From a candidate division WOR-3 bacterium (GTDB lineage: Bacteria > Hydrothermota > Tepidihabitantia > SM23-42 > JAOAFX01), in contig JBDRWI010000075.1 of NCBI GenBank assembly GCA_039802265.1, forward strand, positions 1 to 10,118: a stretch of DNA of 10,118 nt. Direction: 5' to 3'. Positions within the stretch are counted from its first letter, which is position 1. Each line of letters begins with the position of its first letter. Positions 182 to 10,118 of this stretch are shown here, piece after piece. The position numbers and the translations under genes were made by a program. The notes beneath the pieces are model-generated. The model was not told the DNA's origin, ran no database searches, and saw nothing but the letters and a program-made list of their open reading frames with translations.

Positions 182-2142
182 TATTTTAAAAGAACTACTT
201 TCTCAATCTGCTTATAATCTCCAGATTCCAGTCGCACAAAATAAACACCCGCGGGCAATCTACGGCCCAAATCATCATTACCAGACCAGATGATACCTGA
301 TGTATGATTCAGGATACAGGATTCAGGATTAAAGGATTTTACAACACGACCTGCAACATCGTAGATCTTTAAAGAGATTTCGGATTGCGGATTACGGAAT
401 GTGGAATTATTTGGAATTTGGGATTTGGTGCTTGGAATTTGGAATTTAATCACGCAGTGATTTTTGAATGGATTGGGATAGACCAACAATTTTAAATTTT
501 CTCCTTTAAGTCTGGCTTCTGCGGTTTCTTTAATCGGTGTCTCTTCATAATATCTCACTTCGGCACGAATATTGAAGTTATAATATTTTCCATTATGTAT
601 GGGTTCTTCCCAGGATTCGCCATCAAGTGAAACATAAGACCGATGGGCAGCCCAGTTTCCATTATCTACACCGATTGGATAATAGGCATTCTGTGTGTAA
701 ATAATGACCCAGAAATCACCCTTTGATTCCATTACTACTGGTGAATTTAATCCAATGTAATTCCAGCAATGATGCGATACCCCGCTCTGTGAATGAATAA
801 TCTCATTAGGCATTCCATATTCATCTGTATCATAAATTAAGAGTTGATAATTGAATTCATGATTCATAAAAGCAATGACCCCGGTAACAGTACAGGGTTG
901 GACAACATAGAAACGCACTCCTGCATAAAAAGGCGGATCGTCAGGATAACCCCAGAATGAATAAGGTGCACCATCGTACTGGATTGTATCTATAAAAGCC
1001 CAGTTTCCAATACCTCCGTATATTCCCATTGAGTCATTATACATACAGCCCCTTAAATATTCGTCCCATACAGTAAGGTCAGCAACTTCAAGATTAGAAT
1101 AAGAGTTATCATAATATGTGGGCTTTGAGGGATGGTATATTGCGATTCCATAGGCATCAGCATAGGTATTATGTTTTTCTATCACTGCCTCATCCACTCC
1201 ATTTATTACCAACTGGGCGACATTCTTCAGATAATCAGGAAGGCTCGCTGATTTTATCCTTCTTGCAAAATCATACAGGTCAATGTGGGAATATTCATAA
1301 AAATTTTGTGTTGCTGAACGAACAGAATTGATTGTATTAGTATATCCTTGATCTCTTGCCCTCATCAGTTCTAAGGCAAATGTATCAATCTTCGTATTAA
1401 GTTCAGTTATTGCCGAGAGATCAACTGCTGAAAGCGTGGGTTGGCTTGTGCTATTAACAATACTTTTACCTAAATCTGAAGGGCTCATTGCAGGATTAAG
1501 GGTGAGGTCTTGTAAAAACCCTGCGTAATACCAGCCATCAGCAGGTTCTGTCTCTTCTGAACCTACCATATAACCTGCGTATGGTGATATATTCACCATC
1601 ACTTCCCACATCTGCATAAGGCAGGCGTCAAAGCCCAAAACATCTACATAACCAATCTGGAAGAGTGCCTGACGCAGTTCACCTCTTGCGACAGAAATTT
1701 CATTGCCGCTTGATTCGTCATAAGAAATGCCTTTTATTGGTTCAATAGAATCAACTCCCCCGCGCCAGCCATCCCCGTGATTCCAGATAATCAGAAGATA
1801 ATGATTCGCAGGGTAATTATTTTTAACCCAGGTACCAAATTCTGCGAGTGTTGAGGGGGCACCCATATCAACTTCACCGATATCTTCAATCAATTCCGAA
1901 TTAATGATATTTGGGTCATTGTCATGGGTTACATAGTACCGGCGGCAGGTGGTCCAATCGCCATTAGAGTTGTTATATCCCACAGCGCGGTCAAACTGCA
2001 CTATAATATTTATCTCCGAAGTAGAACCGATTGCTTCCATCTCATTAAAATCTCTAATACCGTATGTCTCAAGGTTATTATCACCGTTTAAATAAACCAT
2101 TACTGTCCACTGTGCACCGATTAAAAAGGACAGCAACCACAT
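181..2142 (-). CDS. Clostripain-related cysteine peptidase (family C11) with a beta-sandwich domain and C-terminal T9SS-A/FlgD-Ig-like sorting domain
   Basis: N-terminal WTVMVYLNGDNNLE...EM..IGS..INIIVQFDR. Catalytic dyad motifs IWNHGDGW (His122, 1777-1779) and GFDACLM (Cys174, 1621-1623). GSEETEP, LSAVDL and YGIAIYHP are typical of C11. C-terminus YPNPF...LKIYDVAGRVV...WSGNDDLGRRLPAGVYFVRL...KVVLLK. SD AGGAGGA at 2147-2153. Confidence 0.93.
   Translation of the reverse strand: MWLLSFLIGAQWTVMVYLNGDNNLETYGIRDFNEMEAIGSTSEINIIVQFDRAVGYNNSNGDWTTCRRYYVTHDNDPNIINSELIEDIGEVDMGAPSTLAEFGTWVKNNYPANHYLLIIWNHGDGWRGGVDSIEPIKGISYDESSGNEISVARGELRQALFQIGYVDVLGFDACLMQMWEVMVNISPYAGYMVGSEETEPADGWYYAGFLQDLTLNPAMSPSDLGKSIVNSTSQPTLSAVDLSAITELNTKIDTFALELMRARDQGYTNTINSVRSATQNFYEYSHIDLYDFARRIKSASLPDYLKNVAQLVINGVDEAVIEKHNTYADAYGIAIYHPSKPTYYDNSYSNLEVADLTVWDEYLRGCMYNDSMGIYGGIGNWAFIDTIQYDGAPYSFWGYPDDPPFYAGVRFYVVQPCTVTGVIAFMNHEFNYQLLIYDTDEYGMPNEIIHSQSGVSHHCWNYIGLNSPVVMESKGDFWVIIYTQNAYYPIGVDNGNWAAHRSYVSLDGESWEEPIHNGKYYNFNIRAEVRYYEETPIKETAEARLKGENLKLLVYPNPFKNHCVIKFQIPSTKSQIPNNSTFRNPQSEISLKIYDVAGRVVKSFNPESCILNHTSGIIWSGNDDLGRRLPAGVYFVRLESGDYKQIEKVVLLK
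291..332. repeat. Heptamer tract in the C11 CTD (second loop)
   Basis: TGATACC TGATGTA TGATTCA GGATACA GGATTCA GGATTAA. A near-identical copy lies at 9165-9206. Confidence 0.8.
378..447. repeat. Degenerate heptamer tandem tract in the C11 CTD
   Basis: TTTCGGA TTGCGGA TTACGGA ATGTGGA ATTATTT GGAATTT GGGATTT GGTGCTT GGAATTT GGAATTT. Confidence 0.85.
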
Positions 2143-2160
2143 CCTATCCTCCTTTTTTTT

Positions 2161-2199
2161 AAGAAATAAACAGGGGCTGGCTTTTTAAACCAACCCCTG
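2161..2199 (-). terminator. Rho-independent terminator after the FG-GAP gene
   Basis: Minus strand CAGGGGTTGG-TTTAAAAAG-CCAGCCCCTG (10-bp stem with one G-U pair) followed by TTTATTTCTT. Confidence 0.75.
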
Positions 2200-2251
2200 A
2201 TATTTTTTGAAATTTTTGTTTTAACTGTTTTTAAATGTTCTGGAGGGTCTA

Positions 2252-8962: not shown

Positions 8963-8982
8963 ATATCACCTCCTTTTAATCA

Positions 8983-9010
8983 TTTATAATTTCAAAATCA
9001 AAAAAGTCAA
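8983..9010 (-). promoter_or_regulatory. Possible sigma70 promoter of the metalloprotease gene
   Basis: Minus strand TTGACT (9010-9005), 16 nt, TATAAA (8988-8983), just upstream of the SD. The -10 lacks its final T, and the region is AT-rich. Confidence 0.4.
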
Positions 9011-9054
9011 GAGTAAAAAGCACATAAATGTGATTTATTTTCAAATCTGTGATT

Positions 9055-10118
9055 CTATTTCAAGAGTATCGTTTTGACTTCTTTGTGAAAATCTCCTAAG
9101 TTTAATTGCATAAAATAAACCCCCGCAGGAAGTCTGCGACCTGAATTATCATCACCAGACCAGATGATACCTGATGCATGATTCAGGATACAGGATTCAG
9201 GATTAAAAGATTTTACAACCCGTCCTGAAACATCATATATTTTTATACTGACTACTGGATACTGACTACTGGCTACTTCTAAATTAATTTCGGATTTCGG
9301 ATTGCGGATTGCGGATTTGTTTTGGATTTGGAATTTAATCACGCAGTGATTTGTGAATGGGTTTGGAGAAACGATAAGGGCGATTTTGTGGCTAATTTTT
9401 TCTACCTCCATAATTTCCTGTCCATCGGGCCATTCAATTACCTTGCAGTAGACATCAAACCAGTGAGTGGGTATGCGGGTATCGTTCCATACGATATAAA
9501 TGCGATTGTTTGCTGAGAAACAACTGGCATATGATTGTTCAGCATTGGTTGTATCATTATCAACCCGGAAATTATCACCAATCTTGTTGCCTTGCGAATC
9601 AAAAAATTGTCCAAAAAGGTCAGCATTGCCATTAGGCTGATCATCCCATAGGACAAAGAATTTCCCATCGCTGTTGGAAACAACCGAATAAAAGTTTTTA
9701 TAAGCAATTGTATCGTCACTAATGATAAAATTATTGCCAATTTTCTGGAGCGTGCTGTCCAGAAACTGACCAATTATTTTTGTTAGATTTGCGTTAAGCC
9801 AGACAAATAAGTAGCGGTCAATGCCCCTTGCTCCACAGATAGGATAATACGATGCCGGTTCGTCATTAAGAATTATTGATGAAGATACTGGAATGCCGTT
9901 GTAGTCAAATTCCTGAATGGCGATAATGACTGAATCACCAGTGTTGCATGAAATAGGCACAATAAACTTTCCATTACCTTCGTCCACTGCGGACCAACCC
10001 AAATTATATCCCGAAGAATCAACATAGGGATTGAATTGATTACCATAGGGGATGCCCATAGTATCCAGAATCCTTCCGTAGATTTTATCAATGGTTGAAA
10101 TATTCTCATTCCAAATCA
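9055..10118 (-). CDS. 5'-truncated secreted beta-propeller-type repeat protein with C-terminal T9SS-A/FlgD-Ig-like domain
   Basis: The frame stays open past the listed ATG (10059) to the window edge (...IWNENISTIDKIYGRILDTMG...). It has ~50-aa repeats of the form VW-x(6-8)-(I/L)xGQxxDxxGxKIGxNFx(I/V). CTD SPNPF...IYDVSGR...WSGDDNSGRRLPAGVYF...KTILLK. Confidence 0.85.
   Translation of the reverse strand, partial: IWNENISTIDKIYGRILDTMGIPYGNQFNPYVDSSGYNLGWSAVDEGNGKFIVPISCNTGDSVIIAIQEFDYNGIPVSSSIILNDEPASYYPICGARGIDRYLFVWLNANLTKIIGQFLDSTLQKIGNNFIISDDTIAYKNFYSVVSNSDGKFFVLWDDQPNGNADLFGQFFDSQGNKIGDNFRVDNDTTNAEQSYASCFSANNRIYIVWNDTRIPTHWFDVYCKVIEWPDGQEIMEVEKISHKIALIVSPNPFTNHCVIKFQIQNKSAIRNPKSEINLEVASSQYPVVSIKIYDVSGRVVKSFNPESCILNHASGIIWSGDDNSGRRLPAGVYFMQLNLGDFHKEVKTILLK
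9165..9206. repeat. Heptamer tract in the propeller-protein CTD (second loop)
   Basis: TGATACC TGATGCA TGATTCA GGATACA GGATTCA GGATTAA. Confidence 0.8.
9244..9336. repeat. Two heptamer tracts in the propeller-protein CTD (first loop)
   Basis: TATACTG ACTACTG GATACTG ACTACTG GCTACTT (9244-9278) and TTTCGGA TTTCGGA TTGCGGA TTGCGGA TTTGTTT TGGATTT GGAATTT (9288-9336). Confidence 0.85.

Follow-up and report, generated by a model that had tools for sequence, protein, structure and literature searches.

Heptamer-phase conservation in translated repeat arrays of type IX secretion domains from a candidate division WOR-3 bacterium

Conservation of the loop-2 array by heptamer phase

In this study, we examined arrays of 7-nt units (heptamers) that are translated in frame within the C-terminal domain (CTD) of type IX secretion system (T9SS) proteins. 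These arrays lie in a 10,118-nt stretch of DNA (hereafter the window), contig JBDRWI010000075.1 (C75) of a candidate division WOR-3 genome (GCA_039802265.1, here G000; 2.30 Mb, 89% complete), where they occupy two CTD loops in three genes designated A, B, and D. The loop-2 array of gene A (289–330, minus strand) consists of five ATCCTG-type heptamers and a degenerate sixth; it spans 12 codons, is length-neutral, and differs by one base from the loop-2 array of gene D (9163–9204, minus strand). Diverged copies of this array vary according to heptamer phase. At the core letters, ATC and the closing G, there is almost no variation, even at synonymous sites, and three phases vary freely despite the resulting amino acid changes. 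We infer that the constraint acts on the nucleic acid, as selection on a degenerate sequence motif, because selection on the protein cannot yield the phase pattern and copying between paralogues is blind to phase.

Copies entered the comparison if they resembled the array of the window and had its length, a filter that removed badly decayed ones, and related copies are not independent. With these limits, the minor-allele frequency in the seven successive phases was 0.17, 0.05, 0.03, 0.07, 0.27, 0.30, and 0.06 (40 copies from seven genomes), and it was flat by codon position. Across 41 copies, phase gave an R2 of 0.55 (p 0.0004) for the variation within the array and codon position gave 0.00. 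The upstream flank showed the reverse, with R2 values of 0.12 for phase and 0.55 for codon position. Parsimony assigned 1, 1, 1, 0, 1, and 1 changes to the six core synonymous sites, as against 7, 8, 3, 10, 11, and 11 at synonymous sites of the variable phases and a mean of 9.2 at those of the flanks. The result held on three different trees, which gave 0–1 changes at each core synonymous site, 3–11 at the variable-phase sites, and flank means of 9–11. In loop 2, the 24 distinct A/D-type copies from four genomes had synonymous differences of 0.083 within genomes and 0.086 between them, compared with 0.42 and 0.46 in the upstream flank and 0.36 and 0.37 in the downstream flank. Amino acid differences in the array (0.18) were in the range of those in the flanks (0.16 and 0.25–0.27). 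The recA third positions of G000, G001, G007, and G009 differ by 39–52%; recA was not found in G013. A weaker phase signal was present in the loop-1 ATCCGMA tract (R2 0.38, p 0.025, n = 30).

Selection could also act on the loop peptides, for example to choose among many PorV-family shuttle proteins, of which the genome has 15 matches, and the length of loop 2 is indeed constrained. We consider this very unlikely because amino acids are free at the variable phases while synonymous core sites are fixed, and because synonymous re-encoding abolishes the signal. A neutral by-product is a possible, if somewhat unlikely, explanation. According to this account, slippage or templated rewriting renews arrays everywhere, the arrays survive in lax loops, and short-patch copying mimics conservation. 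In-frame arrays of the ATCYWG family inside orthologous enzyme genes of two other genomes (L197 in G078 and L198 in G044), which we take to be nadC-like, differ by three units (21 nt), as a neutral process would allow. The concentration of tracts in removable parts, the existence of decayed copies, and the presence of an unrelated repetitive extragenic palindromic (REP) hairpin in the same loop point in the same direction, and polymerase slippage has been put forward as the cause of the prokaryotic heptamer excess (Mrazek 2007, described in PMC4679880). However, paralogue copying is blind to phase, yet the core and variable phases differ about tenfold. There is neither a difference within versus between genomes nor a gradient into the flanks, and the order of unlike units is conserved across genera. 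Minor alleles matched another unit of the same array in 134 of 224 cases against 117 expected, a weak excess on which templated rewriting within the array was rejected.

Distribution and exchange of the arrays

Tracts were called at a criterion of at least 17 of 21 matches at lag 7, and the CTD tail was defined as the last 390 nt of each of the 169 CTD genes, which were identified with a profile built from the genome itself. Lag 7 yielded 75 tracts in the genome (one of them a run of N), whereas lags 5, 6, 8, 9, 10, 11, and 13 yielded 3, 6, 28, 8, 22, 2, and 3, respectively. Fifty-one lie in CTD tails (78.5 per 100 kb), 6 in intergenic DNA (2.55), 16 in other coding sequences (0.93), and 1 in a passenger (0.36). 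Synonymous re-encoding reduced the 51 CTD-tail tracts to a mean of 0.43 (maximum 2 in 40 runs), and codon shuffling reduced them to 0. The original prediction that the periodicity resides at the DNA level and is not driven by the protein is thus borne out, as is the enrichment of CTD tails over other coding sequences, intergenic DNA, and codon-shuffled controls. At a second threshold, 85 tracts of period 7 or 8 were found in 37 of the 169 CTDs. The CTD of gene C had been proposed as an internal control. It contains no period-7 array by Tandem Repeats Finder (TRF), but it is a weak control because it belongs to a distant sub-type (22% identity to the gene D CTD). The 132 genome CTDs without tracts at the second, stricter threshold are a better one.

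Coding tracts outside the CTDs number 13 in the first 45 codons (5.5 per 100 kb) versus 7 elsewhere (0.4); three of these seven belong to one mis-classed CTD, and two to a four-helix-bundle gene, in its tail. Tracts also occur in a third slot, the linker that precedes the CTD. Predicted signal peptides are another site: their N-terminal region is encoded by the same heptamer words, in some genes by two tracts (G000:C79:3283-8319, C84:3966, C4:44735-45431, C11:32764, and C65:11174). The loop-2 word of genes A and D was found in 16 of 201 genomes of the phylum. It is in or just before a CTD at 11 of 24 loci and in a signal peptide, enzymes, or intergenic DNA at the remainder, and it occurs in both orientations in coding strands. 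At G000:C53:1200-3200, intergenic ATCCGMA arrays each follow the same conserved block of about 40 nt; the genes downstream are presumably a nucleotidyltransferase/HEPN-like pair and an ATPase gene.

In the window, TRF detected period-7 arrays at 306–330, 376–398, 409–447, 2476–2506, 9164–9204, 9246–9277, and 9287–9318, confirming tracts in the same loops of three of the four CTDs; a lag scan of the window showed period-7 peaks confined to genes A and D. All loop tracts are on the minus strand. Loop 1 of gene A holds an ATCCGMA-type tract of four units, partly decayed (377–404), and an AATTCCA-type tract (409–447), and that of gene B holds an AATTCCA-type tract (2476–2506). In gene D, an ACTACTG-type tract (named on the plus strand; 9246–9277) is followed by an ATCCGMA-type tract and then a short AATTCCA-type tract (9287–9336). 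The loop-2 array of gene B (2364–2398) is ACGGT-type and decayed, and its word is that of the downstream arm of the four-helix-bundle gene G000:C14:2478. The corresponding ACCGTTN tract of the original prediction was missed by TRF and by the lag scan (10 of 14 matches), and its support came entirely from cleaner members of the family. The two units of a predicted intergenic TTCGGA/TTCGAA remnant are present (55–70, no strand assigned) and adjoin a separate palindrome at about 21–53, in a block common to contig C70. A 10-bp repeat directly after the stop codon of gene A (138–181, minus strand) resembles the arms of the four-helix-bundle gene G000:C14:3376; genome-wide, 18 of 22 period-10 tracts are intergenic.

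Loops were parsed in 52 of the 169 CTDs, of which 32 are repeat-bearing; the loop types are automatic k-mer clusters, in which some families are split. Relative to plain CTDs, loop 1 of repeat-bearing CTDs is longer by 0 to 129 nt (most commonly 21 nt, 7 of 32), and loop 2 differs by -6 to +3 nt, with 9–12 codons compared with 11. The view of the tracts as inserts therefore holds for loop 1, but loop 2 is a length-neutral replacement. Twelve loop-1 and 13 loop-2 clusters occur in 23 combinations among the 32 CTDs, and 12 of 18 near-identical loop-2 pairs have different loop-1 clusters. Mantel rho was 0.12 for loop 1 against loop 2 and 0.02 for the first strand against the tail. A second copy of the A–B gene pair, on C64 of the same genome, has other cassettes. 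Orthologues of gene B have yet other cassettes in G001 and none in G016 and G029; the proteins of locus L214 are identical to those of G029, and the loops of L215 are short. These orthologues indicate that the tracts were not inherited unchanged along with the passenger, and the cassettes are interchangeable as predicted. In the gene-B orthologue L028 (G001:C122), loop 2 has a further insert, which we take to resemble a CGTC/RPE-like palindrome. One loop-1 type (G000:C5:6151-6245, C4:2550-2748, and C93:2641-2748) has apparently two inverted heptamer arms and appears to be a gene-less hairpin read in frame.

The first 117 nt of contig C70 are identical to the gene D passenger and are followed by a CTD without the ACTACTG-type cassette (window 9441–9585 versus G000:C70:1-495, L081). 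In three runs (X1–X3), five C70-type bases are present on a contig running through the gene D passenger. The fork stems either from exchange of tails within the population or from the assembly itself, and some mosaics may be artefacts. Such a passenger joined to two different CTDs, together with the near absence of linkage between the CTD segments flanking the loops, would suit a role of the arrays as recombination landmarks, maintained by the host so that CTD tails and passengers are exchanged faster. We regard this role as improbable because homology-driven exchange needs no conserved phases and because the fork, possibly an effect of assembly, has its start upstream of the arrays.

The original prediction also proposed a phase-variable secretion switch, in which adding or losing a single unit would shift the frame and so remove the export signal. 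Its premise holds, since the export signal in Porphyromonas gingivalis lies in the last 22 residues, downstream of both loops (PMC4804311), and loss of the last strands would follow from a one-unit change. All 151 full-length CTDs in the genome are in frame, as are 54 CTDs in loci of relatives that were chosen by similarity and are biased to intact copies. The one split CTD in the genome has a 1-nt insertion, at a contig start, and none of the genome CTDs is frameshifted by a heptamer unit. No insertions or deletions were found in contigs of four runs from one study, where contigs drop rare variants; the runs containing the window DNA derive from hot-spring metagenomes. Each array has 4–6 degenerate units and no long run of identical units, and the loop-2 array has one length across the compared copies, equal length being a selection filter. 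The intact CTDs, the 1-nt split, the absence of contig indels, and the short, degenerate units make a switch hardly credible.

Candidate readers of the arrays

The genome encodes six TIGR02436 four-helix-bundle genes, a family that the original prediction had proposed to look for in linkage with intergenic arrays. One of them has arms made of the gene B loop-2 word, and the sole solved relative found for its protein is 2GSC, with five chains. Comparison of the 85 CTD tracts with the arms of 94 four-helix-bundle genes gave matches for 38, 36, 30, and 34 tracts in the four orientations, whereas reversed or complemented controls gave 2–14. The matching words are ACGGT, ATCCGMA, AATTCCA, and the octamer; the ATCCTG, ACTATGC, and ACTACTG types had no match. 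With 29 genes, CTD tracts had seemed to share the reading of the downstream arm (21+21 of 85, as against 2+0), but this rule was lost with 94 genes; the locus-end control for the 29-gene comparison was noisy (1–25) and was not used. The window contains no four-helix-bundle gene, and its CTD tracts are single arms without an inverted pair. Presence of a four-helix-bundle gene was also rejected as a predictor of array abundance, as it fails across 30 relatives.

The suggested reverse transcriptase did not materialize: none of the diversity-generating retroelement (DGR) type was found in the 89% complete genome. A DGR was rejected, the sole trace of a reverse transcriptase being a 110-aa fragment among insertion sequence remnants. 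The core adenines of the loop-2 array are invariant. Loop 1 of gene B also holds, in frame, a GTAG-tagged REP-like hairpin (2436–2458, minus strand; z -2.5), copies of which are found in the genome at 15 intergenic sites, 4 CTDs, and 1 other site. A Y1_Tnp gene (G000:C56:164-1036) resembling REP-associated tyrosine transposases (RAYT) is located about 200 nt from another copy. Heptamer tracts fold no better than shuffles (z -0.6 to 0.7), and hairpin formation by the tracts themselves was rejected.

We give an even chance to the following explanation: the arrays are dispersed elements that reassort in those parts of secreted-protein precursors that tolerate them, and a sequence-specific protein, probably of the four-helix-bundle family, likely keeps them in register. 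Arrays of 7-base and some 8-base units would arrive from the same pool as the cassette arms and REP hairpins and would survive just where the peptide matters little. Because 7 and 3 share no common factor, three units, which span 21 nt, would encode the same cyclic 7-residue peptide in any frame. Duplication of CTDs and exchange of tails would multiply the arrays, and copies with an intact core would be kept or re-copied through protein recognition as DNA or RNA. The beneficiary may be the host, through mRNA control, or the array alone, through selfish spread. As the reader, a four-helix-bundle protein is a candidate lead.

Several points weigh against protein recognition of a conserved motif, beginning with the choice of copies by likeness and equal length. 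Neither the gene B array type (p 0.17, n = 15) nor the octamer type (p 0.92, n = 11) has a significant phase signal. The loop-2 word of genes A and D has no arm match among the 94 four-helix-bundle genes, and none of the 24 loci with this word has a four-helix-bundle gene within about 1.5 kb. Four-helix-bundle genes are present in 30 of 30 relatives but the ATCCGMA array in just 18 of 30. Arrays occur in both orientations within coding strands, and the orientation rule fell. Conservation can also be mimicked by recent transfer, which these genomes show: one locus is 98% identical between G000 and G007. A stretch of a membrane-complex operon with a four-helix-bundle cassette in L002 (G000:C14) is 96–98% identical to L056 (G007:C11) and L057 (G009:C11), which, given the recA divergence of these genomes, suggests recent transfer or mis-binning.

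A more specific proposal is that the arrays are operator sites of a hidden code, in which four-helix-bundle proteins in the form of rings, each specific for one word of 7 or 8 bases, would read about five units on the DNA or mRNA of genes for secreted proteins. The DGR protein Avd is a positively charged pentamer (PMC6182149). We think this code rather unlikely. If true, exchanging a loop cassette would connect a gene to a different reader, and the export tag, being removable, would offer regulatory sites a landing pad that costs the mature protein nothing.

Secretion setting and comparison with known systems

The window contains five genes, all on the minus strand. Gene A (181–2142) encodes a clostripain-family (C11) peptidase, gene B (2252–4561) an FG-GAP-like repeat protein, and gene C (6758–8962) a protein with an HExxH motif, probably metalloprotease-like; the 5′ end of gene D (9055–>10116) is beyond the window. 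Each of these four genes has a type-A T9SS CTD at its end, that of gene C being plain and of a distant sub-type. A regulator with a GGDEF domain fused to a sigma-54 activator (4780–6708) lies between genes B and C, and the gene-B homologue in L214 also has this regulator upstream. One gene B homologue carries the label Ca. Stahlbacteria, which points to WOR-3 as the likely phylum of the host. The four CTDs scored 31.1, 34.7, 27.5, and 25.8 bits with TIGR04183, all above the cut-off of 23. Profile searches found the translocon SprA along with the PorV-family matches; no PorU sortase exceeded the cut-off in this incomplete genome (best match 73.5 bits versus 420). Folding of the gene D tail from a single sequence was unusable (predicted local distance difference test, pLDDT, 42.8). 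Repeated with a 24-row alignment, the AlphaFold model of the gene D CTD (pLDDT 82.5) has an Ig-like β-sandwich fold, and its closest structures are the CTDs of mirolase (Foldseek E 2.5e-4), PorZ, and PorU. Loop 1 is a low-confidence coil between strands in this model, and both loops are predicted to be surface coils of the T9SS CTD fold.

Heptamer arrays are common in bacteria and largely unexplained, slippage being the usual account. The occurrence of one coding array in about 40 diverged copies makes constraint at the protein level separable from constraint at the nucleic acid level. The defined degenerate motif provides a concrete substrate for finding a reader, with synonymous recoding of the core as a matched control, and opens the question of whether the large four-helix-bundle family of unknown function is that reader. 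For annotation, the arrays account for unusual peptides of low complexity in CTDs and signal peptides, and these tails are places where assemblies fork. A search of main texts, largely open-access, found no paper on heptamer arrays in T9SS CTDs or on repeat-armed four-helix-bundle genes, and no passage of PMC10392669 proved relevant.

The domains share the profile, fold, SprA, and PorV family of type-A T9SS CTDs (TIGR04183/PF18962); they differ in the long, repeat-built loop 1 and in the lack of a match above the cut-off to the PorU-type sortase characteristic of the system. Contingency loci with simple sequence repeats (SSR) likewise have short-unit repeats in surface-protein genes, and the heptamer upstream of Haemophilus hmw1A is an SSR phase-variation example. 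Such loci change frame by unit number, whereas here the units are few and degenerate and no frameshifted or unit-number allele was found. In the family of four-helix-bundle/23S rRNA intervening-sequence proteins (TIGR02436, PF05635), the inverted short-period arms of the genes share words with CTD tracts. Compared with DGR Avd and four-helix-bundle cassettes, the CTD tracts are gene-less single arms, and no intact reverse transcriptase was found.

Cyanobacterial short tandemly repeated repetitive sequences (STRR) are repeats of heptamer units. They and the long simple sequence repeats (LSSR) of heptamers share with the present arrays the 7-base units, short arrays, lineage-patchy abundance, and period-7 excess over shuffled controls. 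Heptamer units are the commonest long simple repeats, with slippage as the proposed cause (Mrazek 2007, described in PMC4679880), and examples include the TAACTGA repeats of Beggiatoaceae (PMC4679880) and the G-rich heptamers of Xanthomonas and Nostoc (PMC4692102). Heptamer LSSR and STRR are mostly intergenic, in contrast to the 6 intergenic tracts versus 51 in CTD tails found here. Unlike heptamer LSSR, most of the tracts detected here are translated; they occupy set positions within a single domain family, draw on many different words, and are conserved in a phase-specific manner. In-frame REPs are also known (PMC3733652). These intragenic REP/RPE palindromes (GTAG family with RAYT) are, like the heptamer tracts, dispersed repeats in frame in tolerant protein regions (PMC3733652); the tracts differ in being direct repeats without a hairpin of their own or a GTAG tag. 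The arrays are genuine and represent a variation on dispersed heptamer repeats and intragenic repeats already described, to which their phase-specific conservation is an informative addition.

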